Below, piece after piece: positions 8,587 through 33,380 of a stretch of DNA of 64,000 bases. The number at the start of each line of letters is the position of its first letter. The first letter of the stretch is position 1. The stretch is from NCBI GenBank assembly GCA_944381635.1, contig CALWLY010000017.1, positions 15,026 to 79,025 of the forward strand, given 5' to 3'. A model generated the notes under the pieces. That model was not told the DNA's origin. It saw only the letters and a program-made list of their open reading frames with translations, and did no database searches. Origin of the DNA: an uncultured Lachnospiraceae bacterium. Lineage in GTDB: Bacteria; Bacillota; Clostridia; Lachnospirales; Lachnospiraceae. Both the position numbers and the translations under genes were made by a program.

Positions 8587-8718
8587 TGATGCCGCCGGTT
8601 TTTTCATGTTTGTATGAAACACATAACCTTAAAACCTCAGCCTTTTAATATGCGTTTTACTATAAACCATGATTTGGCGGTTGTAAAGGGGTTTTTACCA
8701 AAAATTTTGGAAAACGGG

Positions 8719-8746
8719 TTGACAGGAAGAAAAAAAGGAGTATACT
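8719..8746 (+). promoter_or_regulatory. sigma-A type promoter of the GSIII-glmS operon
   Basis: TTGACA, 16-nt spacer, TATACT. The hairpin at 8757 starts about 4 nt after the expected transcription start. Confidence 0.55.
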
Positions 8747-8756
8747 ACAAAACCAT

Positions 8757-8772
8757 AAAGCAACGGCGCTTT
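8757..8772 (+). promoter_or_regulatory. putative antiterminator hairpin AAAGC-AACGGC-GCTTT (AAMGGC hexaloop family)
   Basis: 5-bp stem with hexaloop AACGGC. The loop and 3' arm overlap the terminator's 5' arm AACGGCGCTTTGG. Confidence 0.55.
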
Positions 8773-8801
8773 GGAGAAATCCGAAGTGCCGTTTTTTATT
8801 T
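8762..8801 (+). terminator. intrinsic terminator in the GSIII-glmS leader (attenuator)
   Basis: 13-bp stem AACGGCGCTTTGG / CCGAAGTGCCGTT (two G.U pairs), loop AGAAAT, then TTTTTTATTT. It lies about 120 nt upstream of the start codon. Confidence 0.7.
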
Positions 8802-8922
8802 CATTGAAAAGCTATGCTGCATTAAAGTGCAAAAGAGCTGCCTTTTCTATGAAATAAAAACGCTCCGCTGTGGATGCGCACTTTTTATACAGCAGGCGGC
8901 GGATAAAGAAAGGAGAATGAAT

Positions 8923-12954: not shown

Positions 12955-13079
12955 ATGCAACAAAACGAAACATTCATCCATGTTAGAATCCTTTCATGTA
13001 AAGCACTTCGGCATGAAAAATGCCGCAGGAAAAAGTGAAATCCACCGGGTACGGTGGGAAAAATGAAAGGAGATTTCAG

Positions 13080-14738
13080 ATGGAAAATAAAATTCAGAAT
13101 CAGCCGGAAATGTTTTGCTTTCAGTGTCAGGAGACTGCAGGCTGCCGCGGCTGCACTCACGCAGGTGTATGCGGCAAAACTGCGCGCACTGCCAGGCTTC
13201 AGGATATGCTTCTTTATGTGACAAAAGGACTTTCACAGATTACTGCATCTATGAGAGAGGAAGGAAAAGAAATTCCCGACAGCATTAACGACAGAGTGAC
13301 AGAGAATTTGTTTGTCACGATTACCAATGCAAATTTTGACGACGAAAAGATTACAGAGCTTATTTTCCGGACTATGGATGAAGCAGTTTGGTTGAAAACT
13401 CAGTGCGGATGTGGAAAAGTTTTCGGCCCGGCGGCGGAGTATGTGGAAAAGGACCCTGAGAAATTGCTTGAAAAGGCAGGAGAGATAGGAATATTGTCCA
13501 CGGAAAATGAAGACATCAGAAGTTTGCGGGAGCTGATTACCTATGGTCTTAAAGGAATGGCCGCCTATCTAAAGCATGCTAACGCTCTTGGAAAGGACAG
13601 CAAAGAGATTCATGCCTTTTTACAGTCTGCACTTGCGGCAACTCTTGACGATACGCTTGGTGCGGATCAGCTTGTGGCATTGGCATTGGAAACCGGAAAA
13701 TACGGAGTAGATGTCATGGCGCTTTTGGATGAGGCCAATACTTCGCGCTTTGGAAATCCTGAGATCACAAAGGTAAACATCGGTGTGCGCAAAAATCCGG
13801 GTATTCTTATTTCCGGACATGACTTAAACGATTTGGAAATGCTTTTAAAACAGACAGAAGGAACGGGCGTGGATGTGTACACTCATTCGGAAATGCTTCC
13901 CGCACACTATTATCCGGCATTTAAAAAGTACAGTCATTTTGCAGGAAATTATGGAAATGCATGGTGGAAGCAAACAGAAGAATTTGAATCCTTCAACGGT
14001 CCCGTGCTTCTTACCACCAATTGTCTGGTGCCTCCGAAAGCGTCCTATAAAGACCGCGTATACACGACCGGAGCCGCAGGTTTTCCGGGCTGTAAGCACA
14101 TTTCGGCGGGAATCGGGGAAGAGAAAGATTTCAGTGAATTGATTGCCCATGCAAAAAGATGTCAGCCGCCTAAAGAAATTGAAACAGGAGAAATCATAGG
14201 CGGATTTGCGCATAATCAGGTTCTGGCTTTGGCAGACAAGATTGTGGAAGCCGTCAAGAGCGGGGCGATCCGTCGGTTCGTAGTGATGGCCGGCTGCGAC
14301 GGAAGAAGCAAATCCAGAGATTATTACACAGAATTCGCGAAAGCTTTGCCGAAAGATACGGTCATCCTGACAGCAGGCTGTGCAAAGTATAAATATAACA
14401 AACTTAATCTGGGTGATATCGGAGGAATTCCCAGAGTGCTGGATGCGGGACAGTGCAACGATTCCTATTCTCTGGCAGTGATTGCGCTGAAACTAAAGGA
14501 AGTATTCGGTCTTTCTGATATCAATGAGCTTCCGATAGTTTATAACATTGCCTGGTATGAGCAGAAGGCGGTTATTGTTCTGCTTGCCCTTTTGCATCTG
14601 GGTGTGAAAAACATTCACCTTGGCCCTACGCTCCCTGCCTTTTTATCCCCCAATGTGGCAAAAGTGCTGACAGAAAACTTTGGAATTTCCGGCATTACCA
14701 CGGTAGAAAAAGATATGGAACTATTTTTTCAGTCATGA
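13080..14738 (+). CDS. hcp: hydroxylamine reductase / hybrid-cluster protein
   Basis: N-terminal [21 protein letters not shown] cysteine motif and about 552 aa. The start MENKIQ at 13080 follows AAAGGAGA. Confidence 0.92.
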
Positions 14739-19590: not shown

Positions 19591-20577
19591 TCAGTCGTCA
19601 ATATCGTCAGCATCGTCATAGATATCGTCAGCGTCGTCGTAGATATCATCGGCATCGTCGTAGATATCGTCAGCATCGTCGTAGATATCATCAGCGTCGT
19701 CGTAGATATCATCGGCATCGTCGTAGATATCGTCAGCGTCGTCATAGACATCGTCAGCATCGTCGTAGATATCATCAGCATCATCATAGATATCATCGGC
19801 ATCGTCACGGATGTCGTCAGCATCATCAGCTCCGTCAACTTCTGCTTCCAGAACTTTTCCGCTGAATGCGTCTACTTCATATTCATATTCTTTATTGTCC
19901 AGAGTAAATTCGATTTCATAAACTCCATCGTCAATATCGTAATCTTTTTCCACGAACTGCAGGTCATCGGATTCCAGCTGTGCTTTCAGAATTTCTTCTG
20001 CGGTCTGAGCATTGATGTAGCCTTTTGCACGGTAGTTGTCGTCGTAATCATCAGAATCAATGGCAATAGGTTCAGAATCCATCTGACGTTCGGAAACAAG
20101 AGTGCGGACATCATCTGCAATATCTGTCAGAAAGTGGTCGTTAGGTAAAGCAGAGTCGGGATCCAGTTTCAGAATAATGTTTTTCTCATGGCCATCTACA
20201 GTTGCGTCGAAATAACCTGCCTCGTCAATGTCCGTCACGAGAGAGCGAACGGTTTCCTGAACCGGCTGGCCTTTGTAAGCCTGTGCATCCTGAATAATTT
20301 TTTTACCGTCATCGTTAAGACCTTCGATTTCCGTCACGTTTCCTGCGGAATCGTATTCGATTTCAATCTCCGGATTGACACTTAAAAGAAGAGAGCCGAT
20401 ACTTTCGGAATGATTGTCAGCGGTTGATGTTGTCTCCGGCTGTGTGGTTTCCACCGGAGCGCTGGTGGAGATGTTTGCTGTTTCCTGATTCTGGCATCCT
20501 GTCATGAGAGTCATTCCCATAAGAGCAGCTCCTGCAAAACTGATTGAAAATAATTTTCTGCCTAAGTTTTTTTTCAT
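19591..20577 (-). CDS. lipoprotein with RsgI-ectodomain-like region, PepSY domain and C-terminal (DDADDIY)n acidic repeat
   Basis: Lipobox LMTGC. The segment VNPEIEIEYDSAGNVTEIEGLNDDGKKII aligns by eye to RsgI INPSVQLDVSRSHRVVGITALNEDGASLI. PepSY-like segment DDGVYEIEFTLDNKEYEYEVDAFSGKVLEAEVD. About 11 heptads at the C-terminus. Confidence 0.75.
   Translation of the reverse strand: MKKNLGRKLFSISFAGAALMGMTLMTGCQNQETANISTSAPVETTQPETTSTADNHSESIGSLLLSVNPEIEIEYDSAGNVTEIEGLNDDGKKIIQDAQAYKGQPVQETVRSLVTDIDEAGYFDATVDGHEKNIILKLDPDSALPNDHFLTDIADDVRTLVSERQMDSEPIAIDSDDYDDNYRAKGYINAQTAEEILKAQLESDDLQFVEKDYDIDDGVYEIEFTLDNKEYEYEVDAFSGKVLEAEVDGADDADDIRDDADDIYDDADDIYDDADDVYDDADDIYDDADDIYDDADDIYDDADDIYDDADDIYDDADDIYDDADDIDD
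19594..19830 (-). repeat. 21-bp tandem coding repeat (about 11 units) encoding DDADDIY
   Basis: Period-21 units of the form GTCGTAGATATC(A/G)TC(A/G)GC(A/G)TC. Units differ mostly at synonymous third positions. Confidence 0.9.
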
Positions 20578-20634
20578 AAAATAGTATCCTCCTTTATCTT
20601 TGCCTGAAGAAATGATTTTGTTTTTCTGTTAACA

Positions 20635-20665
20635 GTATACGAAGCATTTTTTCTAAAAAGGGGGT
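20635..20665 (-). promoter_or_regulatory. sigma-I-like promoter ACCCC-N19-CGTATACT upstream of the acidic PepSY lipoprotein gene
   Basis: Minus strand reads CAACCCCCTTTTTAGAAAAAATGCTTCGTATACTG. It has the same spacing and the same CGTATACT element as the site upstream of sigI. Confidence 0.5.
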
Positions 20666-20685
20666 TGCGGAAAAAAATTTTAAAA

Positions 20686-21744
20686 TTAATCGTCGTCATC
20701 ATCCCCATCATCATCGTCTCCCTCATCATCATCATCGTCATCGTCGTCGTCATTATCATCATCGTCATCATCATCGGAATCTGCCGGGGGAGAAACCACA
20801 CTGCCGCCTGCAGCCGGAGCGGAGGGAAGTGTACTGTCATTTGGAGCCGGAAGCGATGAGGGGGCAGGAGTGCTGCCCGTATTGTCCGCAGGCACATTTA
20901 CACTGCTGCCTGCGGCAGGAATATCATCGTCATCCCTATCATCGATGTCGTCTTCTATATCATCCACGTCATCGTCCGTATCATCGTCATCTATATCACT
21001 GACGTCATCATCCATGTCATCACTGTCATCATCTGCATCATCATCGTCCTCATAGATATCATCCATATCGTCCGCATCCTCATAAGAATCGGCCGGCAAA
21101 GGAGCTGAGGGAGTATTGACGGCAGGCTGTGAAGAAGGATTCCGTGTTTCCGAAGAAGAATCCTCAGAGCTGCCGGGGGATACAACAATTACAATCGTGT
21201 AATCTTTTAAATGTTCTTCCAGGTTTTGAGACAACTGTTTTTCGGATTGTTCCTTCCACTGGCTGCTTCCTCCGGAAACGGAAATAACAATCTCTCCGCT
21301 GGGAGCAAGGAAGCCCATGGAAATAGCACGGTCCGCAAGCTCATCAGCTACGGTAGTGTAGTCTTTTCCGTGGTAGTCATAGTCGTCGATCAAAGAAGCT
21401 CCGTCTTCATTCAGAGCGGTAATGCCGACTACGCGGTGGGATCTGCTCACATCGAGTTGTACGCTGGGATTGATCTGCATTTGAATCTGTGCGTAGGAGG
21501 CAAAAACATAAAAGTACCGTTCTGTACCAATAAGCGCAAGAAATAAGCAGGCAGCGGCTGCGAGAACGGTTATGGATTTCGGAATCCGAAGTCCTTTTTT
21601 TCCGGAAGGAGTATCTTTCAGCAAAATTACGTCAGTTACGGTTTGACCTGTCTGATATCCACGGTTTGCAGCTTTCAGAAAGCAGCCTTTTTCATCCAAC
21701 ACGATCACATAGGCAGGATGTACTTCCATTACAAGATATTTCAT
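20686..21744 (-). CDS. rsgI: anti-sigma-I factor RsgI family, with highly acidic C-terminal ectodomain
   Basis: RsgI_N-like N-terminus (MKYLVMEVHPAYVIVLDEKGCFLKAANRGYQTGQTV), one TM helix, an extracytoplasmic domain, then two aspartate-rich blocks that end in a 31-aa near-pure Asp tail. Its ATGA start overlaps the sigI stop. Confidence 0.8.
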   Translation of the reverse strand: MKYLVMEVHPAYVIVLDEKGCFLKAANRGYQTGQTVTDVILLKDTPSGKKGLRIPKSITVLAAAACLFLALIGTERYFYVFASYAQIQMQINPSVQLDVSRSHRVVGITALNEDGASLIDDYDYHGKDYTTVADELADRAISMGFLAPSGEIVISVSGGSSQWKEQSEKQLSQNLEEHLKDYTIVIVVSPGSSEDSSSETRNPSSQPAVNTPSAPLPADSYEDADDMDDIYEDDDDADDDSDDMDDDVSDIDDDDTDDDVDDIEDDIDDRDDDDIPAAGSSVNVPADNTGSTPAPSSLPAPNDSTLPSAPAAGGSVVSPPADSDDDDDDDNDDDDDDDDDEGDDDDGDDDDD

Positions 21745-22481
21745 TGACTGTCACCGCCTTTCCTGTCCGGAGAAATTTTACATAAATGTCCCCGAATGAT
21801 TTCATAGCCGTTTGTATAAGCTATAAGAATGGCAACCAGATATTTTCTGTGTCGCTCAAGCGTCTTTTTTTCGACACCGGTATTATCGGATAATTCTGCA
21901 ATGGGAAGTTTTCCTGTCTGAGCAACGGCAGACAGAACAGCGGAATGCGACTTTGCATAAGCCAGAATTTTTCCGCAGGCCTGAAGGGTGCGTTCCTGTT
22001 TGGGACAGTTATCTGCTACATCGGAAAAAGAGATGCCAAAATTTTGAAGCTGTTTCCCGTATTCCTCAATTTCTTCTGCGGCAGCAGTTCTGTGATGAAA
22101 GGTTTCCACGTCGTTGTGTGTGTCCTCGATTTTATCAAGAAGCGTTGTATGGCCGTCGTCGTCTCCGGCAGGTTCATACAGAGAAATCGAGGAAGAATGT
22201 CGTTTTTCTTTCCGATAGTGGTCAATCAGACGATTTTTGATGTTCCTGGCAGCAAGGGAAAGAAAGTTTCCCTTTTTCACGTCATAGCCTAAAATAGACT
22301 CGTAAAAGGCAAACATGGCAATGCTCAGTTCATCATCCATTCCGTCCTGAGGAAAACGATGAATGAATTTGGCTGTTTCGGAACGGATAAATCCCATATA
22401 TTTTTCTATCAAAGCGTCTGCGGCCTGGGTATCCGTTTTTGCAGCATGAATTAAATTGACAATTTCATGTTGTTCATGCAT
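21741..22481 (-). CDS. sigI: RNA polymerase sigma factor SigI
   Basis: By-eye similarity to B. subtilis SigI along the full length (FGISFSDVADNCPKQERTLQACGKILA; VEKKTLERHRKYLVAILIAYTNGYEIIRGHL). It is translationally coupled to rsgI. Confidence 0.85.
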   Translation of the reverse strand: MHEQHEIVNLIHAAKTDTQAADALIEKYMGFIRSETAKFIHRFPQDGMDDELSIAMFAFYESILGYDVKKGNFLSLAARNIKNRLIDHYRKEKRHSSSISLYEPAGDDDGHTTLLDKIEDTHNDVETFHHRTAAAEEIEEYGKQLQNFGISFSDVADNCPKQERTLQACGKILAYAKSHSAVLSAVAQTGKLPIAELSDNTGVEKKTLERHRKYLVAILIAYTNGYEIIRGHLCKISPDRKGGDSQ

Positions 22482-22925: not shown

Positions 22926-23248
22926 TTGACAAAAAAAAATCGAGAGACTATGATGTAAGCATATTTATAAAAAAAGCGTTGACAGGAAGAGTATGGCATT
23001 GGAAGCGGACAGAGAGAAAGGCATATGGTGGAAGCCTTTTGCGCAGGAAAATGCAGGAAGACCACCCTGGAGCGTCCCTTAATCGGGAACGGTGATTCCG
23101 TTATCATCACAGATGAGAGGCATGCAGGTCAGGATTTTGTTTCCGTTGATTTCATAGGTCTGAAAGCTATGCATGCAAGCAGGGTGGAACCGCGTGAACA
23201 GACGTCCCTTCAGAAAGCATTTAACCATGTTTTCTGGAGGGTTTTTTT
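22926..23248 (+). promoter_or_regulatory. T-box riboswitch (Thr, specifier ACC) with its promoter and terminator, controlling thrS
   Basis: Promoter TTGACA-17-TATGAT (22926-22954). AGAGAG box, specifier-loop context GAAG-ACC-A at 23061-23063, T-box sequence AGCAGGGTGGAACCGCG at about 23179-23195, and terminator CCCTTCAGAAA ... TTTTCTGGAGGG plus T7 (23206-23248). Confidence 0.85.
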
Positions 23249-23311: not shown

Positions 23312-25240
23312 ATGAACATCATATTAAAAGATGGAAGTCATAAGGAGTACAGCCAGCCAATGACAATTTTGGAAGTGGCAAAAGATATCAGCGAAGGTTT
23401 GGCAAGAGCAGCCTGTGCAGGAGAAGTGAATGGAGAGGTGCAGGATTTGCGGACAGTACTTTCCGAGGACTGCCACCTGAATATTTTGACAGCAAAGGAT
23501 GAGAGCGGTCTGGCAGCTCTGCGTCACACAGCCAGCCATGTGATGGCACAGGCAATCAAACGCCTTTATCCGGAAACAAAGCTTGCAATTGGACCGTCCA
23601 TTGCAGATGGTTTTTATTATGATTTTGAATTTGCATCTCCGCTTACCAGCGATGACTTTGGAAAAATCGAAGCAGAAATGAAAAAGATTATCAAAGAAAA
23701 TCTTCCGATTGAACGCTTTGTACTTCCCAGAGAAGAAGCAATCAAACTGATGCAGGAAAGAAACGAACCTTACAAAGTGGAACTGATTGAAGACCTGGAG
23801 GAAGGCGAAGAGATCAGTTTTTATAAACAGGGTGAATTTGTGGATCTGTGCGCAGGCCCTCATCTGATGAGCACCAAATACGTAGGAAAGGCATTTAAGT
23901 TAATGAGCCTTGCAGGCGCTTACTGGAGAGGCGATGAGCACAATAAGATGCTGACTCGTATCTATGCAACAGCTTTTGGCACAAAAGAAGAGCTGGAAGC
24001 TTATGAAACTATGATGGAGGAAGCAAAAAAGAGAGACCACAGAAAACTGGGAAAAGAACTGGGACTGTTCATGATGCATGAAGCAGGACCGGGATTCCCG
24101 TTCTTCCTTCCTAAAGGAATGGTATTAAAAAACGTTTTGCTGGATTACTGGAGAGAAGTCCACAGAAAAGCCGGCTATGTGGAAATTTCCACACCTGTTA
24201 TATTAAACCGCAGTCTCTGGGAGACATCTGGTCACTGGGCTCACTATAAAGACAATATGTATACTACGGTAATCGACGGAGAAGATTATGCAGTCAAACC
24301 GATGAACTGCCCGGGCGGCGTGCTTGTGTATGCTTCAGAGCCCCGTTCGTATCGTGATCTGCCGCTGAGAATGGGAGAACTGGGACTGGTTCACAGACAT
24401 GAGAAATCCGGACAGATGCACGGACTGATGCGTGTTCGCTGCTTTACACAGGACGATGCTCATATTTTCATGACACCGGAGCAGATCAAAGAGGAAATTA
24501 AAAATGTGGCAAAGCTTATCGATGAAGTATATTCCCTGTTTGGTTTCCGTTATCATGTAGAACTTTCTACAAGACCGGAAGACAGCATGGGAAGTGATGA
24601 AGATTGGGAACTGGCAACAGATGCGCTCAGAAACGCCCTGGATGAGCTGAACCTTCCTTATGTAGTCAACGAGGGAGACGGAGCTTTCTATGGACCTAAG
24701 ATTGATTTCCATCTGCAGGACTCCATCGGACGTACCTGGCAGTGCGGAACGATCCAGCTTGATTTCCAGCTTCCTCAGCGTTTTGAACTGGAATACACAG
24801 GCGCAGACGGAGAAAAACATCGCCCGATTATGATCCACCGTGTAGTATTCGGTTCTATCGAGCGTTTCATCGGAATTTTAATCGAGCATTTTGCAGGAGC
24901 ATTTCCGACATGGCTTGCGCCCGTTCAGGTAAAAGTTCTTCCAATCTCCGACAAGTATGCGGATTATGCTGAAAAAGTATGCTGCGAGCTTTGCGATACA
25001 GGAATCCGTGCGGAGACAGATATGCGCTCCGAGAAAATCGGCTACAAGATCCGTGAAGCACAGACTTCTAAAATTCCGTACATGCTGATCGTCGGTCAGA
25101 AGGAAGAGGAAGAAGGCAGTGTATCCGTAAGAAGCCGTTTTGCCGGTGATGAAGGAAGCATGGAACTTCAGGAGTTTGTCGGCAGAATAAAGGAAGAAAT
25201 AGACGGCAAAATCCAACGCCAGACAGAGAAAAAAGATTGA
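23312..25240 (+). CDS. thrS: threonine--tRNA ligase
   Basis: 642 aa with a TGS N-terminus (MNIILKDGSHKEY), a class II core and an anticodon-binding domain. It lies directly downstream of a Thr T-box. Confidence 0.96.
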   Translation: MNIILKDGSHKEYSQPMTILEVAKDISEGLARAACAGEVNGEVQDLRTVLSEDCHLNILTAKDESGLAALRHTASHVMAQAIKRLYPETKLAIGPSIADGFYYDFEFASPLTSDDFGKIEAEMKKIIKENLPIERFVLPREEAIKLMQERNEPYKVELIEDLEEGEEISFYKQGEFVDLCAGPHLMSTKYVGKAFKLMSLAGAYWRGDEHNKMLTRIYATAFGTKEELEAYETMMEEAKKRDHRKLGKELGLFMMHEAGPGFPFFLPKGMVLKNVLLDYWREVHRKAGYVEISTPVILNRSLWETSGHWAHYKDNMYTTVIDGEDYAVKPMNCPGGVLVYASEPRSYRDLPLRMGELGLVHRHEKSGQMHGLMRVRCFTQDDAHIFMTPEQIKEEIKNVAKLIDEVYSLFGFRYHVELSTRPEDSMGSDEDWELATDALRNALDELNLPYVVNEGDGAFYGPKIDFHLQDSIGRTWQCGTIQLDFQLPQRFELEYTGADGEKHRPIMIHRVVFGSIERFIGILIEHFAGAFPTWLAPVQVKVLPISDKYADYAEKVCCELCDTGIRAETDMRSEKIGYKIREAQTSKIPYMLIVGQKEEEEGSVSVRSRFAGDEGSMELQEFVGRIKEEIDGKIQRQTEKKD

Positions 25241-25264
25241 CAGACATTTTAGGACTGTTATAAT
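25237..25264 (+). promoter_or_regulatory. sigma-A promoter of the glnA leader
   Basis: TTGACA (overlapping the thrS stop codon), 16-nt spacer, extended -10 TGtTATAAT. Confidence 0.6.
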
Positions 25265-25374
25265 AAAAGCAGATTTCAAAACAGCAGTGCCTCTGGTATG
25301 GGCATAGATGCTGCATACAGGCAGACCGTATGGTTCGGGATGTTTTTCCTGTATACCTACACTGGCATGAAGTA

Positions 25375-25390
25375 AGAACAAAGGCGTTCT
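25375..25390 (+). promoter_or_regulatory. putative antiterminator hairpin AGAAC-AAAGGC-GTTCT (AAMGGC hexaloop family)
   Basis: 5-bp stem with hexaloop AAAGGC. GGCGTTCT is also the start of the terminator's 5' arm. Confidence 0.55.
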
Positions 25391-25427
25391 AAACTGAGGT
25401 ACCTCAGTTTAGAGCGCCCTTTTTTTA
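25383..25427 (+). terminator. intrinsic terminator in the glnA leader (attenuator)
   Basis: 17-bp arms GGCGTTCTAAACTGAGG / CCTCAGTTTAGAGCGCC (one G.U pair) followed by CTTTTTTT. Confidence 0.8.
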
Positions 25428-25509
25428 CTCAATATGAGTAAAAAAGGGCATAAATGCACATGATGCGCGAGAAGAAAATGCTGCCAAAAGCAGCTGCGCT
25501 TCGGCGCGA

Positions 25510-25534
25510 TAGTCCGCAAGCGGACTATTATTTT
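25510..25534 (+). terminator. second, weaker terminator-like hairpin in the glnA leader
   Basis: TAGTCCG-CAAG-CGGACTA followed by TTATTTT, about 30 nt before the glnA start. Confidence 0.35.
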
Positions 25535-25562
25535 AATACCGATACGAAAAGGAGAGGATGGA

Positions 25563-26843
25563 ATGTATACAAAACAGGAAATACTGAGAATGGTGGAAGA
25601 GGAGGATGTGGAATTTATAAGACTTCAGTTTACGGATGCGTTCGGAACACTGCGGAATATAGCCGTGCCGGCAGGGCAGTTGGATAGGGCTCTTTCCAGG
25701 CAATTTCGCATCGAAGGTTCTTCCATCCGTGAATTTTTGTGGAATGAGGATGAGGATGTGTATCTTTATCCGGATCCGGATACTTTTACGATTCTTCCCT
25801 GGAGACCCCAGCAGGGGAAAGTGGCAAGACTTTTGTGTGATATCTACCGTTCGGACGATACGCCTTTAAGCGAAAGCCCCAGATCGATTTTAAAGAAGGT
25901 ATTATGCCGGGCAGACAAACTTGGTTATACCTTTCAGGTAAAACCGGAATGTGAATTTTTCCTGTTTCATACGGATGAAAACGGGATTCCCACCACATTG
26001 ACCCATGAACAGGCGGGATATCTGGATATCAGCCCTTTGGATCTGGGAGAAAACGCCAGACGGGATATGATCCAGACACTGGAGGAAATGGGATTTGAGA
26101 TAGAATCTTCCCACCACGAACTGGCTCCGGCTCAGCATGAGATTGATTTTCATTACGCAGACGGGATCAGCACCGCAGACCGGATTGTTACCTTTAAATC
26201 GGCGGTGCGTTCCATTGCCAAAAGGCATGGGCTGCACGCCACCTTTATGCCGAAGCCGAAAGCAGGGACGGCAGGTTCCGGCATGCATATTCATATGAGC
26301 CTTTGGAAAGACGGAAGAAATATTTTTGAAGATGCCGACAGGGAAAACGGACTGAGTGTGGAGGCGGAATATTTCATCGGAGGAATCTTAAAGCATATCA
26401 AAGGAATGACAGTGATTGCCAATCCTCTTGTAAATTCCTATAAACGGCTGATATCGGGTTTTGAGGCGCCGGGAGAGATAAACTGGTCTGTGAAAAGTTC
26501 CAATGTGCTGATCCGGGCGGTAAGGCGAAGAGAGGAGACGGTGATTGAGCTTCGCTCTCCGGATCCTTCTGCCAACCCTTATCTGCTGCTCGCTTTGTGC
26601 TTAGAGGCAGGACTTTGGGGAATGGAGAAAAAAATACTGCCCTCAGAAGCCGTAAATGGAAGAGATTTCCTACCTCAGACGCTCAAAGAGGCTGTAGCTG
26701 CATGCAGAGAGGATGAGTTTATAAAAGACGTGCTGGGCGAAAAATTTCTGGAGCCTTATCTTGCTGCCAAGGAAAAAGAATGGCTGGAATATATGACACA
26801 GGTTACAGACTGGGAAATTCAGGAATATCTTTACCGCACTTGA
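25563..26843 (+). CDS. glnA: glutamine synthetase, type I
   Basis: 426 aa with a GS beta-grasp N-terminus (VEFIRLQFTDAFGTLRNIAV) and a catalytic domain (HHELAPAQHEIDF, GSGMHIHMSL). RBS is AAAGGAGAGG. Confidence 0.93.
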   Translation: MYTKQEILRMVEEEDVEFIRLQFTDAFGTLRNIAVPAGQLDRALSRQFRIEGSSIREFLWNEDEDVYLYPDPDTFTILPWRPQQGKVARLLCDIYRSDDTPLSESPRSILKKVLCRADKLGYTFQVKPECEFFLFHTDENGIPTTLTHEQAGYLDISPLDLGENARRDMIQTLEEMGFEIESSHHELAPAQHEIDFHYADGISTADRIVTFKSAVRSIAKRHGLHATFMPKPKAGTAGSGMHIHMSLWKDGRNIFEDADRENGLSVEAEYFIGGILKHIKGMTVIANPLVNSYKRLISGFEAPGEINWSVKSSNVLIRAVRRREETVIELRSPDPSANPYLLLALCLEAGLWGMEKKILPSEAVNGRDFLPQTLKEAVAACREDEFIKDVLGEKFLEPYLAAKEKEWLEYMTQVTDWEIQEYLYRT

Positions 26844-26879
26844 GAAAACGCGCCGTTTGCCGCGTGGAAGGGAGGTGCT

Positions 26880-27431
26880 ATGAGCAGCATTGTCATTACA
26901 TTGCCCAAAATTGAAAATGCCAGACAGATTCGGGATATTCTGGTTCGCCATGGTTTCACCGTGGATGCTCTCTGCACCACCGGAGCCGGTGCACTGATTG
27001 AAATGAACCGTCTGGACTGTGGAATTGTGATCTGCGGCTATCGCTTTTCGGATATGTATTACACACAGCTTGCGGAAAGTATGCCGGAAAGCTTTGAAAT
27101 ACTGTTGATTGGCTCTGCGCAGGCAGTTGCGGATTGTCCCTCCGGGCTGGTTTCTCTCACAATGCCTTTAAAATCCTATGAACTGATAAACACGGTGCAG
27201 ATGATGCTGGTTCAGAATGCCCGCCGTTATAAAAAACGCAAAGCGCGGCCAAAAGTTCGGGATGAAAAGGAAAAAAACTATATTCAGAACGCAAAGAGGC
27301 TGCTTATGGAAAGAAATCATATGAGTGAGGAAGATGCATACCGGTATATTCAAAAATGCAGTATGGATTCCGGCACCAATATGGTGGAGACCGCCCAGAT
27401 GATTTTGATGCTTATCTATGAAGAACTTTAA
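26880..27431 (+). CDS. ANTAR-domain RNA-binding antiterminator with pseudo-receiver domain (NitR/AmiR-like)
   Basis: C-terminal ANTAR signature (IQNAKRLLMERNHMSEEDAYRYIQKCSMDSGTNMVETAQMIL). The N-terminal receiver-like fold lacks the acidic pocket: IVITLPK replaces the DD pair, and GIVICG replaces the phospho-Asp strand. Confidence 0.8.
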   Translation: MSSIVITLPKIENARQIRDILVRHGFTVDALCTTGAGALIEMNRLDCGIVICGYRFSDMYYTQLAESMPESFEILLIGSAQAVADCPSGLVSLTMPLKSYELINTVQMMLVQNARRYKKRKARPKVRDEKEKNYIQNAKRLLMERNHMSEEDAYRYIQKCSMDSGTNMVETAQMILMLIYEEL

Positions 27432-27446
27432 AAGGAGAAAAACGAA

Positions 27447-28664
27447 ATGGTGACTGTAAATGAAAATTATCTTAAACTGCCCGGAAACTATCTGTTTTCC
27501 GAAATTGCTCACAGAGTGGAGGCTTTCCGGGAAAAAAATCCGGGAGCGGCCATTATCCGCCTGGGAATCGGCGATGTGACACAGCCTATTGCACCTGCCA
27601 TTTTAAAAGCGATGCACAAAGCAGTGGATGAGATGGGAGACAGCCGTACATTTCACGGTTATGGACCGGAGCAGGGGTACGAATTTCTGAGAAATGTGAT
27701 CGCAAAGGAAGATTTTTTGAGCAGAGGATGTCAGATTGAGGCAGATGAAATTTTTGTTTCCGACGGTGCGAAATGTGATGTGGGAAATATACAGGAAATT
27801 TTCAGTCTTGGCAATAAGGTGGCTGTCTGCGATCCGGTTTATCCGGTTTATGTTGATACCAATGTTATGGCGGGAAGAAGCGGAAACTACAACGAGAAGA
27901 CAGGAAGATTTGAAGGTATCCTCTATATGCCATGCACAAAGGAAAACGGATTTGTGCCGGAAATACCGAAAGAAACGGCAGACTTGATTTATCTTTGCTT
28001 CCCAAATAACCCTACCGGTGCTGCTGTGACAAAAGAGCAGCTTCAGGCGTGGGTGGATTATGCCAACAAAAACGGTTCGGTGATCCTTTACGATGCGGCC
28101 TATGAGGCCTATATTGAAGGGGATGAAATTCCTCACAGTATTTTTGAGTGTGAAGGGGCAAGAACCTGTGCCGTGGAAATGCGCAGCTTTTCCAAGAACG
28201 CCGGATTTACCGGGGTACGGCTTGGATATACAGTCATTCCCAAAGAGCTGGTGCGAGGCAAAGTTTCTCTTCATGCTTTGTGGAATCGCCGTCACGGAAC
28301 CAAATACAACGGGGCACCCTATATTGTTCAGAGAGCCGGCGAGGCCGTATACAGCCCGGAAGGAAAGGCACAGCTGAGGGAGCAGATTCAGTATTATAAA
28401 AGCAATGCAGCCATGATCTTAAACGGACTTACCCAGGCGGGATTTGAAGTTTACGGCGGAGTGCATGCTCCTTATATCTGGATGAAAACACCGGATGGCA
28501 TGTCATCCTGGAAGTTTTTTGACTATCTTCTCTCAGAAGCACACCTGGTAGGAACGCCGGGCTCCGGTTTTGGTGCCTGCGGAGAGGGCTATTTCAGACT
28601 CACTGCTTTTGGCAGTCATGAAAATACACTGGAGGCAGTGGAGAGACTGAAAGAACTGCGCTGA
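27447..28664 (+). CDS. dapL: LL-diaminopimelate aminotransferase
   Basis: N-terminus [23 protein letters not shown] ... [12 protein letters not shown], a class I aminotransferase fold and the [10 protein letters not shown] lysine motif. It starts 15 nt after the ANTAR gene. Confidence 0.85.
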
Positions 28665-28745: not shown

Positions 28746-31700
28746 TCATACCCTTGCTTTTGAGGAAAGGCGGCATATATCTACCAGTTCCACGTTGTTC
28801 AGATGATAATCCTGTGAAAGAATATCCGCAAGGGCGTCTGCTGTGTCTAAGGATGTCAGGCAGGGGATGCCGTGTTCTACGGCAATACGGCGGATTTTAA
28901 CGCTGTCCCTGGCGGGAGTGCGTCCTTTGGCGGAGGTGGAAATAATATATTGAATCTTTCCGCTTTCCAGCATTGTCTTGGTGTTTTCCCCTTCTTCTGC
29001 CATTTTGTTGATGGCAGTCACGGAAAGTCCCAGCTGTCTGAGTATACGGGCAGTTCCCTTTGTGGCGTAGAGGGAAAATCCCAGTTCTGCGTATTTGGAG
29101 GCGATGGAATCGATTTCCGCCTTGTCAGAATCTCTTACCGTAATGAGAACTCCGCCTTTTTTGGCCATAGTATAACCGGCGGATACCAGTCCTTTGAAAA
29201 GAGCTTCTTTTCTGTCGCGGGCAATACCCAGGACTTCGCCGGTAGATTTCATTTCCGGACCAAGCTGTGTATCCAGGCCTGACAGCTTTTCAAAAGAAAA
29301 CACAGGAACCTTTACGGCATAATAGCCCGGGGCAGGGAAAAGACCCGGCAAAAAGCCCATCTGCGAAAGAGACTCTCCCAACATAATGCGGGTTGCCAGA
29401 TCTACCATGGGAATTCCGGTTACTTTGCTGATGTAGGGAACTGTGCGGGAAGCGCGGGGATTGACTTCGATCACATAAAGTTCACCCTGATGGATCACAT
29501 ACTGAATATTGATAAGGCCTTTTGTGTGAAGGGAGAGAGCCAGCAGCCGGGAACAGGAAACAATTCGGTCGGTCTGTTCCCTGGTCAGGTTCCAGGCGGG
29601 ATAGACAGCGATGGAATCCCCGGAGTGAACGCCTGCCCGCTCAATATGTTCCATAATACCGGGAATGAGCACGTCCTTTCCATCACAGATGGCATCCACC
29701 TCAAGTTCCGTGCCCATCAGATATTTGTCGATCAGCACCAGATTGTTCTTTTCGTGGGAAAGGATAATTTTCATATATTCCCGGATATCGTCATCGGAAA
29801 AAGCAATGATCATATTCTGGCCGCCAAGAACATAACTTGGCCGCATGAGAACCGGGTAACCAAGGCGGCGGGCGATGCAGAGAGCTTCCTGTGTATTTGT
29901 GGCTGTGTCACCGGAAGGTCTTTTGATATTCAGCTTTTCCAACAGAGCTTCAAAACGACCCCGGTCCTCTGCAGCATCGATGCTGTCGGCACAGGTTCCA
30001 AGAAGCGGAACTCCCTTTTGAGTCAGGAAGGAAGCCAGACGGATGGCAGTCTGCCCTCCGAATGCGGTCACTACGCCCATGGGCTTTTCAATACGGATAA
30101 CATCCATCACATCATCCGGAGTCAAAGGTTCGAAATAAAGACGGTCGGCAGTATTAAAGTCTGTGGATACGGTTTCCGGGTTGTTGTTGATAATGACAAC
30201 TTCACAGCCTGCCTTTTTCAGGGACCATACACAGTGAACACAGGCGTAATCAAATTCGATGCCCTGACCGATACGGATCGGGCCGGATCCAAGTACGATA
30301 ACGACAGGTTTTTTGGACCGATGAGTGTCAATGAAGGAAGAAGCTTCGTCCTCTTTGTCATAAGCTGCATAAAAATAAGGAGTCTCCGCTTCGAACTCAG
30401 CGCCGCAGGTATCCACCATTTTGTAGGAGGCCGGAATATGAGGAATTTCCTCCTTGCCGCAAAGACGGCGGATTGCGCTGTCTGGAAAACCGTATTTTTT
30501 GGCCTCCAGAAGAAGTTCATGATCCAGAGAGGAGGTTTTCAGTTTTTCCTCTATGCGGCAGATATTTTTCAGTTTGTACAAAAACCACTCGTCCACCATT
30601 GTCATGGAATGGAGAGTTTCCACACTTACGCCTCTGCGAAGCGCTTCATAAAGAGCGAAAATACGCTCATCGTCCTCGGCCAGTATTTTATCGGTAAGTT
30701 CCTGATCGCTTTTTTCTTCCATTTCCGGCATGGAAAGGCTGTCCAGAGACAGTTCTGCTCCCCGCACAGCTTTTAAGAGAGCCTGTTCGAAATTCTGGCC
30801 GATTGCCATCACTTCTCCGGTGGCTTTCATTTGAGTTCCCAGTTTTCGCTTTGCATACACAAATTTGTCAAAAGGCCATTTGGGGAATTTTACGACCACA
30901 TAGTCAAGGGCAGGTTCAAAGCAGGCTCTGGTCTTTCCGGTGATTTCATTTTTGATTTCATCCAGACGATATCCAATGGCAATCTTGGCAGCCACTCTTG
31001 CAATGGGATAGCCGGTGGCTTTGGAAGCCAGGGCGGAAGAGCGGGATACGCGGGGATTTACTTCAATAACCGCATATTCAAAGCTTTCCGGATTCAGGGC
31101 AAACTGACAGTTGCACCCGCCCTCAATACCCATGGCATTTATAATATTTAAAGCCGCACTGCGCAGCATCTGGTATTCTCTGTCTGCAAGCGTTACCGCC
31201 GGAGCAATGACGATGGAATCTCCGGTGTGAATGCCTACGGGATCAAAATTTTCCATAGAGCAGACCGTAATACAGTTTCCGGCTCCGTCCCGAATTACTT
31301 CAAATTCAATTTCTTTCCATCCGGCAATACATTTTTCTACAAGAATCTGTGTGATGGGAGACTGCCGGAGACCGTTTTCTGCAATCTCTTCCAGTTCTTT
31401 TTCGTCTGACGCAATACCGCCGCCGGATCCGCCCAGAGTAAAGGCAGGACGGACAATGACAGGATAACCGCATTCCTTTGCAAAAGAGAGAGCTCCCTGT
31501 ACCGTTTCCGTTACCGAAGAGGGGATGACAGGCTCTCCGATCGCTTCCATAGTGTCTTTAAAAAGCTGCCTGTCCTCCGCTTTGTCAATGGTCTCGGGAT
31601 CTGCGCCAAGGAGAGTGACGCCATGTTCCTTTAAAAAGCCTTCCCTGGCCAGTTCCATAGAGAGCGTCAGTCCGGTTTGCCCTCCCAGAGTGGAAAGAAT

Positions 31701-31955
31701 GCTGTCCGGTTTTTCTTTCAAAATGATGCGCTTTAACACATCGGTGTTAAGGGGCTCTAAATAAACACTGTCAGCCATGGCGGAATCTGTCATGATGGTT
31801 GCAGGGTTGGAATTTACCAAAACTACAGAAAGACCTTCTTCTTTCAGGGCGCGGCAGGCCTGGGTACCGGCGTAGTCAAATTCTGCGGCCTGGCCGATGA
31901 CAATAGGGCCGGAGCCGATTACCATAATTTTTTTCAGGCTTTTGTTCAAAGGCAT
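28746..31955 (-). CDS. carB: carbamoyl-phosphate synthase large subunit
   Basis: 1069 aa with duplicated ATP-grasp modules and an MGS-like C-terminus. N-terminus is KKIMVIGSGPIVIGQAAEFDYAG. Confidence 0.96.
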   Translation of the reverse strand: MPLNKSLKKIMVIGSGPIVIGQAAEFDYAGTQACRALKEEGLSVVLVNSNPATIMTDSAMADSVYLEPLNTDVLKRIILKEKPDSILSTLGGQTGLTLSMELAREGFLKEHGVTLLGADPETIDKAEDRQLFKDTMEAIGEPVIPSSVTETVQGALSFAKECGYPVIVRPAFTLGGSGGGIASDEKELEEIAENGLRQSPITQILVEKCIAGWKEIEFEVIRDGAGNCITVCSMENFDPVGIHTGDSIVIAPAVTLADREYQMLRSAALNIINAMGIEGGCNCQFALNPESFEYAVIEVNPRVSRSSALASKATGYPIARVAAKIAIGYRLDEIKNEITGKTRACFEPALDYVVVKFPKWPFDKFVYAKRKLGTQMKATGEVMAIGQNFEQALLKAVRGAELSLDSLSMPEMEEKSDQELTDKILAEDDERIFALYEALRRGVSVETLHSMTMVDEWFLYKLKNICRIEEKLKTSSLDHELLLEAKKYGFPDSAIRRLCGKEEIPHIPASYKMVDTCGAEFEAETPYFYAAYDKEDEASSFIDTHRSKKPVVIVLGSGPIRIGQGIEFDYACVHCVWSLKKAGCEVVIINNNPETVSTDFNTADRLYFEPLTPDDVMDVIRIEKPMGVVTAFGGQTAIRLASFLTQKGVPLLGTCADSIDAAEDRGRFEALLEKLNIKRPSGDTATNTQEALCIARRLGYPVLMRPSYVLGGQNMIIAFSDDDIREYMKIILSHEKNNLVLIDKYLMGTELEVDAICDGKDVLIPGIMEHIERAGVHSGDSIAVYPAWNLTREQTDRIVSCSRLLALSLHTKGLINIQYVIHQGELYVIEVNPRASRTVPYISKVTGIPMVDLATRIMLGESLSQMGFLPGLFPAPGYYAVKVPVFSFEKLSGLDTQLGPEMKSTGEVLGIARDRKEALFKGLVSAGYTMAKKGGVLITVRDSDKAEIDSIASKYAELGFSLYATKGTARILRQLGLSVTAINKMAEEGENTKTMLESGKIQYIISTSAKGRTPARDSVKIRRIAVEHGIPCLTSLDTADALADILSQDYHLNNVELVDICRLSSKARV

Positions 31956-33100
31956 ACAGTTTCCTCCTTTTGTTTCTGGCGATTGTCGTGCATCAGTTTT
32001 AAGAATCGGTCAAAAAGAAATTCGGTATCCTTCGGTCCTGCGCAGGCTTCCGGGTGAAACTGCACGGAAAAGGCAGGGATATGAGTATAGGAAATTCCCT
32101 CGCAGGTCAAGTCATTGAGATTTAAGAAGTTTACCTGTGCATTTTCAGGAAGAGAGGCGCTTTTTACAGCATAACCGTGATTCTGGCTGGTCATATAGAT
32201 TTGTCCGGTTTCAAGGTCTTTCACCGGCTGGTTTGCTCCACGGTGACCGTATTTTAATTTTTCCGTCTCGCCGCCCTGAGAAAGAGCCAGAAGCTGGTGG
32301 CCTAAGCAGATTCCGAAAGTGGGAATGGAGCAGGATACAAGTTTTTTAAGCTGGCGGATGATTTCCGTATTTTCCTTTGGATCGCCGGGACCGTTGGAAA
32401 GAAGGATTCCGTCAGGGGAAAGAGAAAGAATTTCTTCTGCGTCTGCAAAAGCAGGAACTTCTGTCACCACACAGCCTCTTTTTAAAAGTTCTCTTACAAT
32501 ATTCTGCTTTGCTCCAAAGTCCCACACGGCTACATGAAATTTCTCATCCCAATACAGGGAGGACGATGAATTTTTGCTGGCTTCGCAGGGCTCGTATCGG
32601 GTCACCTTGCTGCAGGTGGAGGCGGATACGGCGTTTTGAATGCGAAAGCTTTGGATTTCTTTCCGTTCTCTGTCAGAGTAGGGAGGCGCCTTTCGGGTAA
32701 GTCTTGCATTCATGGTACCGTACTGACGGATCTGCTTGGTCAGGCTTCGGGTATCCACACCGCAGATTCCGGGAATGTTTTGTCGTTTCAAGAAAAAATC
32801 CAGTGTTCCGGCGCTGCGGAAATTGGAAGGATTCTGACACCACTCCCTGCAGATCAGCGCAGAAAGATGAATTTCCCTGCTTTCAAAATCCGAAGGAATC
32901 ATGCCGTAATTGCCGGCAAGAGGGAAAGTCTGGATGACCATCTGTCCATAATAGCTTGGGTCGGTAAGCATCTCAAGATAACCGGTCATGGCAGTGGTAA
33001 ATACCATTTCGGCGTCCACATCCTCTTTAAGAGGAGCGCCGAAGGGAATTCCTTCCATATACTCGCCGTTTTCCAGCACTAAATATACTTTTTCGTCCAT
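31946..33100 (-). CDS. carA: carbamoyl-phosphate synthase small (glutamine amidotransferase) subunit
   Basis: CPSase small-chain N-terminal domain plus a class I GATase (GICLGHQLL). It overlaps the carB start by 10 nt. Confidence 0.95.
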   Translation of the reverse strand: MDEKVYLVLENGEYMEGIPFGAPLKEDVDAEMVFTTAMTGYLEMLTDPSYYGQMVIQTFPLAGNYGMIPSDFESREIHLSALICREWCQNPSNFRSAGTLDFFLKRQNIPGICGVDTRSLTKQIRQYGTMNARLTRKAPPYSDRERKEIQSFRIQNAVSASTCSKVTRYEPCEASKNSSSSLYWDEKFHVAVWDFGAKQNIVRELLKRGCVVTEVPAFADAEEILSLSPDGILLSNGPGDPKENTEIIRQLKKLVSCSIPTFGICLGHQLLALSQGGETEKLKYGHRGANQPVKDLETGQIYMTSQNHGYAVKSASLPENAQVNFLNLNDLTCEGISYTHIPAFSVQFHPEACAGPKDTEFLFDRFLKLMHDNRQKQKEETVCL

Positions 33101-33167: not shown

Positions 33168-33264
33168 CCGCCTGCGGCGGGTCGCTCTGCGATTTATTTC
33201 CTTTCCGCCGCAGTGCGATTTATCATCTTTTTTATACGGCAGGGAATAAAATTTCCTGCCGTAT

Positions 33265-33338
33265 AAAAAAGGCGTTCATGAGAAAAACGATTTCAGGGAA
33301 TAGTATTCCTTAAATCAGTCTTTCTCATGAACGCCTTT
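33265..33338 (-). terminator. intrinsic terminator in the carAB leader (attenuator)
   Basis: Minus strand reads AAAGGCGTTCATGAGAAA ... TTTCTCATGAACGCCTTT (18-bp arms) followed by TTTATAC. Confidence 0.7.
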
Positions 33339-33344
33339 GTTCAT
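33327..33344 (-). promoter_or_regulatory. putative antiterminator hairpin ATGAAC-AAAGGC-GTTCAT (AAMGGC hexaloop family)
   Basis: 6-bp stem with hexaloop AAAGGC. The loop and 3' arm are the first 12 nt of the terminator's 5' arm. Confidence 0.6.
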
Positions 33345-33351: not shown

Positions 33352-33380
33352 AGTATAGCAAAAAGAAAAAAGGCGGTCAA
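33352..33380 (-). promoter_or_regulatory. sigma-A promoter of carAB
   Basis: TTGACC, 17-nt spacer, TATACT. The predicted start site is about 0-2 nt from the base of the hairpin. Confidence 0.6.

Follow-up and report, generated by a model that had tools for sequence, protein, structure and literature searches.

Four operons in a 64,000-nucleotide stretch of DNA from an uncultured Lachnospiraceae bacterium (contig CALWLY010000017.1; this whole stretch is called the window below, and positions count from its first letter) begin with leaders that carry the same device: a small hairpin with the hexaloop AA(A/C)GGC, fused to an intrinsic transcription terminator. The operons are glnA-ANTAR-dapL, pyrG-gltBD, carAB and GSIII-glmS, where GSIII encodes a type III glutamine synthetase. 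We estimate at roughly 70% the probability that the four leaders are cis-elements of a nitrogen/glutamine regulon under ANTAR single-hairpin antitermination, a reading built on sequence comparison. The regulator is most likely the ANTAR protein encoded at 26880-27431, which would be a NitR-like protein with a pseudo-receiver domain. An earlier note, made from the letters of the window, had pointed out the four sites and proposed the ANTAR link; the sequences and positions it gave all read exactly so, and its interpretation held up at each point that sequence analysis can address.

Hairpin-terminator units in four leaders

The predicted antiterminator hairpin has a 5-6 bp stem, and a C-G pair closes the loop in all four leaders. 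Upstream of glnA it occupies 25375-25390 on the plus strand (AGAAC-AAAGGC-GTTCT, -4.2 kcal/mol), and upstream of GSIII 8757-8772, also on the plus strand and extendable to 8756-8773 (TAAAGC-AACGGC-GCTTTG, -4.5 kcal/mol). The minus-strand copies precede pyrG-gltBD (8494-8509; TTGAC-AAAGGC-GTCAG, -3.7 kcal/mol) and carAB (33327-33344; ATGAAC-AAAGGC-GTTCAT, -5.5 kcal/mol).

In the minimum-energy folds of all four leaders, the hairpin and its downstream sequence form a long terminator with a U-tract, and loop positions 2-6 together with the whole hairpin 3' arm lie inside the terminator stem. The glnA terminator spans 25380-25426 (stem 25383-25418, U-tract 25420-25426), its 5' arm beginning in the hexaloop, with a folding energy of -30.6 kcal/mol (z = -8.7). 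Its counterpart before GSIII covers 8762-8799, with a stem at 8762-8793 followed by the U-tract (-25.5 kcal/mol, z = -7.5). On the minus strand, the pyrG-gltBD terminator at 8461-8504 (U-tract 8461-8466) overlaps the hairpin loop and 3' arm (-27 kcal/mol, z = -5.8), and that of carAB at 33265-33338 (U-tract 33265-33270) is a long stem with an internal branch (-42.3 kcal/mol, z = -11.7). Since the terminator 5' arm starts in the hexaloop, the two structures are mutually exclusive, as the earlier note had argued. Folded on its own, the hairpin yields -3.7 to -5.5 kcal/mol, whereas the terminator reaches -25.5 to -42.3 kcal/mol (z from -5.8 to -11.7). Termination should thus be the default, and a stabilizing factor would be needed for the hairpin to form.

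All four operons make or consume glutamine, in agreement with gene identities assigned by Pfam and NCBIfam. The gene glnA (25563-26843, plus strand; Gln-synt_C, 2e-112) encodes a type I glutamine synthetase. The gene of the 183-residue ANTAR protein (26880-27431, plus strand; PF03861) follows after a gap of 36 nucleotides, and the operon ends with dapL, encoding LL-diaminopimelate aminotransferase (27447-28664, plus strand; TIGR03542, 7.9e-185), which starts 15 nucleotides past the ANTAR stop codon and has its own ribosome-binding site. The second plus-strand operon comprises GSIII (8923-11022, likely start ATG 8923) and glmS (11059-12885). On the minus strand lie pyrG, encoding CTP synthase (6798-8435), with gltB (2228-6841) and gltD (675-2195) for the large and small subunits of glutamate synthase, and carA (31946-33100) and carB (28746-31955), which encode the glutamine-hydrolysing carbamoyl-phosphate synthase.

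A further pairing recurs in all four leaders: the terminator U-tract, together with the final C/G residues of the stem, serves as 5' arm to another hairpin, which an A-tract closes (25415-25446 and 8791-8862 on the plus strand; 33241-33285 and, for pyrG, 8440-8466 on the minus strand). The pairing is CCCUUUUUUUACUCA / UGAGUAAAAAAGGG after the glnA terminator and UUUUUUAUACGGCAGG / CCUGCCGUAUAAAAAA after that of carAB; in the pyrG leader the partner of the U-tract is the AAAAGG of the ribosome-binding site. In a crude test, at least 6 of 8 U-tract nucleotides were paired downstream in 53 of 74 related leaders, versus about 10 with shuffled downstream sequence.

Enrichment of the motif over chance

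The octamer CAAMGGCG occurs 11 times in the window, versus 3.6 +/- 1.9 in shuffled sequences, and only the four leader copies combine a stem of at least 5 bp with an overlapping terminator. A covariance model of the hairpin, whose training alignment included the four window sites, gives these sites 27.2 (glnA), 26.6 (carAB), 23.0 (pyrG) and 21.8 bits (GSIII); the next best hit in the 64 kb scores 13.3 bits (E 1.1).

We extended the comparison to 80 loci of relatives, retrieved through the ANTAR protein and sharing at most 64% identity with the window protein. These come nearly all from Lachnospiraceae and related Clostridia (Blautia, Dorea, Fusicatenibacter, Eisenbergiella, Faecalicatena and "Ruminococcus") and make up, with the window, 1.47 Mb. 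With no terminator requirement, stems of at least 4 bp flank 28% of CAANGGYG occurrences in this set versus 1.5-5% of those of six control octamers. A generic scan then admitted any stem of at least 4 bp around any ANNGNN hexaloop, provided that loop positions 4-6 and the 3' arm started a terminator. It returned 106 hits, 87 of them with the loop C-AANG(G/A)N-G; the commonest loops were AAAGGC (45), AAGGGC (17) and AAGGGT (8). Among such hexaloop-hairpin-plus-terminator arrangements C-AAAGGC-G is thus found 45 times, against 7 for the commonest outside the C-AANGGY-G set. Scans with loops of 4, 5, 7 and 8 nucleotides gave a background of about 410-450 hits each and no motif of their own: the top entries of the 4- and 8-nucleotide lists (up to 22 times) are the C-AANGGY-G hairpin with a shifted loop boundary, and otherwise none exceeds 7.

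Conservation, regulon content and covariation in relatives

The 87 units, for which terminator overlap was a selection criterion, have stems of 4-8 bp, and every one lies directly upstream of a gene from one of five families: pyrG (34), glnA (33), GSIII (11), carA (6) or gltB (3). Extra copies that fail the strict terminator rule are again mostly in glnA, pyrG and carA leaders. Internal genes, taken as negative controls, are free of the motif (gltD 0/54, carB 0/8, dapL 0/65).

Absence from orthologous leaders would have counted against the earlier note, but the motif is present there: 51 of 76 glnA genes have a copy of their own. In the remaining 25, gltD or pyrG directly precedes glnA, which is consistent with a distal place for these glnA genes in motif-headed pyrG-(gltBD)-glnA-ANTAR operons; across the set as a whole, a motif before pyrG or gltB was detected in some of the loci concerned. 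The position of the ANTAR gene directly downstream of glnA is itself conserved, with the glnA N-terminus about 1.3 kb upstream of it in the 78 of 80 loci where tblastn found this N-terminus.

Do the stems vary as expected of a structured RNA? The units yielded 59 distinct hairpins, all of which keep the closing C-G pair. The second pair from the loop is A-U in 49, G-C in 8 and G-U in 2; the third is G-C in 33, A-U in 20, G-U in 4 and C-G in 2; the fourth is U-A in 31, G-C in 16, A-U in 10, C-G in 1 and G-U in 1. Since hairpins were selected for at least four pairs, the paired percentage of the inner four positions is partly built in, whereas the diversity of compensatory pair types is not. In the loop, A1, A2 and G4 are invariant and G5 reaches at least 90%. 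The covariation score is 0.629, versus 0.241 +/- 0.024 in shuffles (0 of 500 reach the observed value) and at most 0.26 with a slid partner column. This bears out the remark in the earlier note that stems differ between copies while the loop and closing pair are kept. Variable but complementary arms, including G-U pairs, around an invariant asymmetric centre indicate an RNA hairpin read through its loop and not a DNA operator.

The glnA-ANTAR arrangement is also kept in distant homologues at 36-42% identity. Two of these (L084 and L085, 38%) have TTGCCA-17-TATAAT, then 7 nucleotides, then AGAGC-AAGGGC-GTTCT fused to a terminator before glnA; the hairpin-only covariance model gives their leaders 15 bits (E 0.33), the model being too small for sole use. 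In L090 (37%), a single 5'-proximal AGAC-AACGGC-GTCT with its terminator (5540-5632) precedes a glutamate dehydrogenase gene (gdhA) located after the ANTAR gene, and glnA has no motif. A weaker variant, GGC-AAAGAT-GTC within the terminator arm, is seen in L088 and L089 (42%). The loci L081-L083 and L086 are too short to inform on this point.

Another type of copy lies just after the ANTAR gene in some relatives (L010, at 10585-10606, and L059, L064, L069 and L079, at about 10570-10600). This is a strong C-AA(A/T/G)GGC-G hairpin with a 6-7 bp stem (TGATCAC/GTGATCA), upstream of a gene for a 443-residue aspartate--tRNA(Asn) ligase (NF003483). Here the terminator base shares no nucleotide with the hairpin, and the hairpin 5' arm is complementary to GUGAUUA in the terminator loop. 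These copies hint at another geometry of switching, and at a connection with the glutamine-dependent Asn-tRNA pathway.

One hairpin per leader

Characterized ANTAR targets comprise two tandem hairpins, P1 and P2. The earlier note could find only one per leader, and this is a real feature: an upstream scan, a scan of both sides and the promoter positions all point to it.

In relatives, a perfect TTGACA-17-TATAAT ends 7-11 nucleotides before the hairpin 5' arm in 29 of 33 glnA leaders, and TTGACA-16/17-TAT(A/C/G)(C/A)T ends 8-9 nucleotides before it in 10 of 11 GSIII leaders. The GSIII and carAB leaders of the window have the same close layout. Before GSIII-glmS, the predicted promoter TTGACA-16-TATACT (8719-8746, plus strand) ends 9 nucleotides from the hairpin; before carAB, the TG-extended TTGACC-17-TATACT (33352-33380, minus strand) ends 7 nucleotides from it. 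With a start about 7 nucleotides past the -10 box, the hairpin would begin at about +1 to +5, and P1 would find no space ahead of it. The hairpin therefore probably stands at the very 5' end of the transcript in most glnA and GSIII leaders. In the case of GSIII, the mechanical open reading frame (8614-11022, 802 residues) spans promoter, hairpin and terminator; ATG 8923, located 7 nucleotides downstream of an AAGGAG ribosome-binding site, is the most likely true start. Automatic annotation could over-extend GSIII through 8614-8922 and mask its leader.

The glnA leader of the window is atypical in its length of about 290 nucleotides. Its predicted sigma-70-type promoter, at 25237-25264 on the plus strand, is a TG-extended TTGACA-16-TATAAT matching the consensus at 12 of 12 positions, and would serve the whole glnA-ANTAR-dapL operon from a start near 25271. 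Between promoter and hairpin lies a structured insert of about 100 nucleotides (25271-25374) that folds stably; most relatives lack it and have their promoter right next to the hairpin. No second ANTAR-type hairpin was found in this insert with the covariance model, and it matches no known family. A second terminator-like hairpin is present in the same leader just before the glnA ribosome-binding site (25508-25529): GATAGTCCGCAAGCGGACTATT, with ATTTTAAT after it.

Across the 87 leaders, an ANNGNN hexaloop hairpin lies within 25 nucleotides upstream of the unit in 6, versus 7.8 +/- 2.8 in shuffles, and none of the 6 is canonical; no systematic second hairpin occurs on either side. Whether sought by eye, from promoter positions, with a shuffle-controlled upstream scan or on both sides, no P1 hairpin was found. 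The leaders thus show the other hallmarks by which Ramesh 2012 recognized an ANTAR substrate, namely a hexaloop hairpin of at least 3 bp with A1 and G4, the closing pairs and a P2-type overlap with the terminator, and lack the tandem arrangement of P1 and P2 with a linker of about 5-12 nucleotides.

The ANTAR protein

The protein encoded at 26880-27431 matches PF03861 over residues 133-176 (2.1e-15). A sequence search against solved structures finds EutV (2.4e-7), Rv1626 and NasR over residues 89-177. The model obtained with AlphaFold2 (32 family members; mean predicted local distance difference test score 88.8) comprises a receiver-like fold of five strands, then a long helix and, last, the ANTAR bundle of three helices, with helices at 99-122, 129-146, 150-164 and 168-182. 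Its best Foldseek match is the EutV-RNA complex 6ww6_B (E 6e-10, template modelling score 0.72), and AmiR (1qo0) is among the matches.

Contacts described in the EutV-RNA complex (Walshe 2022, PMC8934654) were mapped through an alignment with EutV onto the 32 family members. The residues that recognize G4 or plug the hexaloop are kept: Lys149, Glu160 and Met172 of EutV correspond to the invariant K139, E150 and M162, and Tyr164 to Y, F or H at position 154.

Pfam finds no Response_reg domain in the protein, and no kinase gene lies close by. By position in the model, the acidic pocket corresponds to L8-P9, the phospho-acceptor to G53 (G or S in the family) and the conserved lysine to M95 (M, T or Y), a mapping made from predicted secondary structure and not by aligning structures residue by residue. 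The N-terminal domain is probably a pseudo-receiver devoid of phospho-acceptor residues. The family is large: 2,567 homologues at E <= 1e-5 in 90% clusters, and 118 representatives at E <= 1e-30 in 50% clusters, with full-length members down to about 35% identity.

Comparison with known ANTAR systems

In the description given by Ramesh 2012 (PMC3369931), an ANTAR substrate is a hexaloop hairpin with A1 and G4. EutV depends functionally on both of these loop residues and on the closing pairs, and the two pairs next to the eutP P1 loop (A-U, then C-G) are needed in that very sequence (PMC3369931). The seed hairpins in Fig. S1 of that study include E. faecalis eutA P2 (UUAAGC-AAAGGC-GCUUAA), L. 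monocytogenes eutG P1 (GGUAC-AAAGGC-GUACU), eutS P1 (GCAC-AACGGC-GUGC), eutG and eutP P1 (AC-AAUGGC-GU) and the K. oxytoca nasF pair (P1 C-AAUGGC-G, P2 U-AAAGGC-G). The earlier note had remarked that AAAGGC and AACGGC fit the A1 and G4 rule; the likeness goes further, as the Lachnospiraceae hairpins share both loops and closing pairs with the validated hairpins of eutA, eutG, eutS and nasF.

The EutV/eut system of E. faecalis, Listeria and Clostridium is one of the closest parallels. It has the A1/G4 hexaloop and AC...GU or GC...GC closing pairs, eutA P2 is practically the GSIII hairpin of the window, the hairpin overlaps the 5' base of the terminator, and EutV has the same succession of receiver (REC) fold, coiled coil and ANTAR domain. 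The leaders described here differ in having neither P1 nor a linker constraint, and their hairpin stands where the transcript is inferred to begin. The protein differs in a receiver apparently lacking phospho-acceptor residues, in the absence of an adjacent kinase gene and in the replacement of several basic backbone-contact residues, and the regulon serves glutamine metabolism, not ethanolamine use.

Another close parallel is NitR, an ANTAR protein of Clostridium saccharobutylicum NCP262; nitR lies directly downstream of glnA. NitR is reported to induce the glutamine synthetase/glutamate synthase (GS/GOGAT) genes on nitrogen limitation, and antitermination of these genes under limiting nitrogen has been proposed (Stutz 2007, as cited in PMC6316151; see also PMC4676874). 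The window similarly has an ANTAR gene in the glnA locus, and pyrG-gltBD carries the same leader device as glnA. The regulon proposed here would differ in also including pyrG, GSIII-glmS and carAB and, in relatives, gdhA and the aspartate--tRNA(Asn) ligase gene. Ramesh 2012 (PMC3369931) likewise predicted nitrogen regulons with ANTAR-type hairpins before glutamine synthetase, glutamate synthase and amidotransferase genes, the ANTAR gene often lying in the same locus (Desulfotomaculum acetoxidans, the glnA-ANTAR locus of Alkaliphilus metalliredigens, Candidatus Desulforudis). Those regulons differ in having dual hairpins, by construction of the search model, and their listed targets include neither CTP synthase nor carbamoyl-phosphate synthase. 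In Lachnospiraceae genomes (C. phytofermentans, Roseburia hominis, B. proteoclasticus and C. saccharolyticum) the dual-hairpin model gave only low-scoring or irrelevant hits, although such genomes code for this type of ANTAR protein next to glnA; single-hairpin targets would predict this outcome, and a 181-residue ANTAR protein of C. phytofermentans is listed in the same study (PMC3369931). In the literature that we searched, nothing beyond Ramesh 2012 connects ANTAR with Lachnospiraceae, Blautia, pyrG or clostridial nitrogen regulons.

Further parallels are NasR/nasF of Klebsiella oxytoca and AmiR/amiE of Pseudomonas aeruginosa, which share the ANTAR output domain and a role in nitrogen metabolism and, in AmiR, a receiver-like domain. 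Both differ in using two hairpins, in controlling a single operon each and in their sensors (a NIT domain in NasR, sequestration by AmiC for AmiR). AmiR is not phosphorylated and is regulated by its partner protein AmiC. BglG, SacY and LicT are a functional analogy only: there too one protein-stabilized hairpin excludes a terminator (PMC3369931), but the fold (CAT domain) is unrelated, the RAT element is 29-30 nucleotides long, and the purpose is sugar use, controlled through phosphorylation by the phosphotransferase system (PTS).

Proposed mechanism

In the scheme that we propose, strong, constitutive-looking promoters would start transcription just upstream of a 4-6 bp AANGGY hairpin closed by C-G, a promoter-abutting layout predicted in most relatives and in the GSIII and carAB leaders of the window. 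By default, the 3' half of the loop and the 3' arm of the hairpin would be drawn into the terminator, and transcription would stop before the first gene. An active ANTAR dimer would instead clamp the hexaloop hairpin as it leaves the polymerase, keeping the G+C-rich terminator base beside the U-tract out of play and allowing read-through; in the units studied, a median of 30 nucleotides (range 17-56) is still to be transcribed before the terminator 3' arm exists. Read-through would express pyrG-gltBD, GSIII-glmS, glnA-ANTAR-dapL and carAB and, as the ANTAR gene lies within the glnA operon, the regulator may control its own gene. One hexaloop would suffice, with no upstream P1 "landing pad", unlike in EutV, NasR and AmiR. 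That the ANTAR protein binds these hairpins, and that binding causes read-through, is what we infer from the conserved pairing of protein and motif. Regulon content and the NitR precedent suggest nitrogen or glutamine limitation as the activating signal. This signal probably enters through a partner protein or ligand, by analogy with AmiR-AmiC, and not through phosphorylation, since the receiver seems unable to be phosphorylated.

A structural precedent exists for the single target: the two ANTAR domains of a dimer bind one and the same hexaloop, and the minimal target has been redefined as one hexaloop (Walshe 2022, PMC8934654).

Several points weigh against the scheme. One hairpin does not suffice in the only systems examined by experiment: deleting P1 or changing the P1-P2 spacing abolishes antitermination by EutV (PMC3369931, PMC8934654), and single-hexaloop sites were expected only where the transcribing polymerase imposes no kinetic constraint (Walshe 2022, PMC8934654). 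Seven RNA-contact positions of EutV differ in the window family (R142 to K/Q, K143 to N, K147 to N, R168 to Q, N173 to D, R175 to G and R177 to N). The replaced residues mostly contact the backbone, and their family-specific substitutes (K/Q132, N133, N137, Q158, D163, G165 and N167) are invariant or nearly so; given these changes, RNA binding may not be assumed from homology alone. Three distant loci at 34-37% identity (L087, L092 and L093) have no recognizable motif, and in some relatives the copy upstream of aspartate--tRNA(Asn) ligase lacks a simple terminator overlap. Finally, it is synteny and the identity of the motif that tie the protein to it.

Alternative explanations

Could the leaders be genuine attenuators whose hairpin is bound by another trans-acting factor, whether an RNA-binding protein or a small RNA, while the ANTAR protein acts elsewhere or not at all? 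The replaced contact residues, and the need for two hairpins in characterized ANTAR antitermination, are what such a factor would explain. We nevertheless consider this unlikely. The loop and two closing pairs equal those of validated ANTAR hairpins, and the residues recognizing G4 and plugging the hexaloop are invariant or still aromatic. Furthermore, the ANTAR gene directly follows glnA in the 78 loci where the glnA N-terminus was found, with a motif-bearing leader detected in most, no other RNA-binding regulator is conserved in these ANTAR-anchored loci, and no dual-hairpin targets that could occupy the ANTAR protein were found in the window or the loci.

A protein-independent device, riboswitch-like or kinetic, in which glutamine, another metabolite or nucleoside triphosphate (NTP) pools act on the nascent RNA or on RNA polymerase, would suit a regulon defined by metabolism. 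The hairpin also stands at or near +1, where initiation-linked mechanisms operate; the reiterative transcription of B. subtilis pyrG is an NTP-responsive example of these. The chances of this explanation seem slim to us, for no known ligand pocket would fit into a conserved core made up of a 4-6 bp stem with its hexaloop, and the hairpin is 20-35 kcal/mol weaker than the terminator. The distance between promoter and hairpin, which varies from 7 to over 100 nucleotides, argues against a mechanism tied to the start site. No Rfam family, including glutamine riboswitches, matches. At gathering score, a search of the whole window found no Rfam match in the leaders, and at E <= 10 over 25200-25600 only chance-level hits to unrelated families appeared. 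We accordingly rejected the glutamine riboswitches (glnA RNA, Downstream-peptide) and other Rfam leaders as candidates.

PyrR-type attenuation of pyrG and carAB was also considered. The binding loop of PyrR is ARUCCAGAGAGGYU. On inspection, the leaders bear no resemblance to it, and glnA and GSIII come under the same hairpin; the candidate was rejected.

The location of the inverted repeat, at about +1 to +20 of consensus promoters, is typical of a repressor site, and it might be read as a DNA operator for a dimeric transcription factor, its overlap with the terminator being incidental. This we regard as very improbable: the arms vary and covary so as to stay complementary, with G-U pairs, which work only in RNA, among them, and the six-nucleotide centre is asymmetric and invariant together with its flanking C and G, the reverse of what an operator would show. 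In every case, moreover, a coding-strand terminator is joined to the element.

The last possibility, that there is no device and that ordinary A-tract terminators with a GC-rich base look alike four times by chance, can appeal to AAAGGCG...CGCCTTTTTT being a common terminator base and to the ability of an A-rich 5' arm to pair with the U-tract, but is effectively refuted by the enrichment of the motif above shuffles and controls, its 100% specificity for five gene families across 80 loci, its covarying stems, and the read-through mechanism that terminators between the promoter and first gene of essential biosynthetic operons require.

Neighbouring genes and other features of the window

A T-box leader (RF00230, 98.6 bits) at 22970-23212 on the plus strand lies upstream of the threonine--tRNA ligase gene thrS (23312-25240), whose stop codon adjoins the glnA promoter. 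Directly downstream of glmS, a plus-strand gene for a hybrid-cluster (prismane) protein (13020-14738) has no ANTAR-type hairpin before it and may relate to nitrogen-oxide or hydroxylamine metabolism. The minus strand encodes, at 19591-22481, a sigma-70-family factor followed by two RsgI-like anti-sigma factors, one with a PepSY domain. It also carries two tRNA genes (RF00005) at 43121-43194 and 57062-57134.

Significance for Lachnospiraceae

An ANTAR protein beside glnA that antiterminates nitrogen-assimilation genes is already known, from NitR and from the regulons predicted by Ramesh 2012. Relative to the literature searched, three elements appear to be new. The first is a conserved layout with one hexaloop where the transcript begins, and the second the attribution of this layout to a large ANTAR subfamily of Lachnospiraceae with a pseudo-receiver. 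The third is a regulon that joins type I GS, type III GS and GOGAT (and glutamate dehydrogenase, GDH, in one distant relative) with CTP synthase, GlmS and carbamoyl-phosphate synthase (CPSase).

If the proposal is true, the rule that an antitermination substrate of ANTAR proteins is a dual hairpin would be overturned, and both the definition of the target and the models used to search for it would need widening. Single-hexaloop sites had been anticipated, though not for co-transcriptional antitermination (Walshe 2022, PMC8934654). A hairpin of 22 nucleotides with its terminator would also make a very small portable regulatory part. Sensing would proceed through a pseudo-receiver, independently of a kinase.

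We would give even odds to a broader claim: that this pseudo-receiver ANTAR subfamily is the main nitrogen/glutamine regulator of Lachnospiraceae, acting through one hexaloop hairpin at the extreme 5' end and taking its signal from a partner or ligand, not from a kinase. Several dominant genera of the human gut belong to the Lachnospiraceae, among them Blautia, Dorea, Fusicatenibacter and Ruminococcus. Were the proposal correct, it would supply a compact model for the way in which such abundant gut commensals co-regulate ammonium assimilation (type I and type III GS, GOGAT and, in some, GDH) with the branch points that consume glutamine, namely CTP synthase, GlmS, CPSase and the Asp-tRNA(Asn) route.

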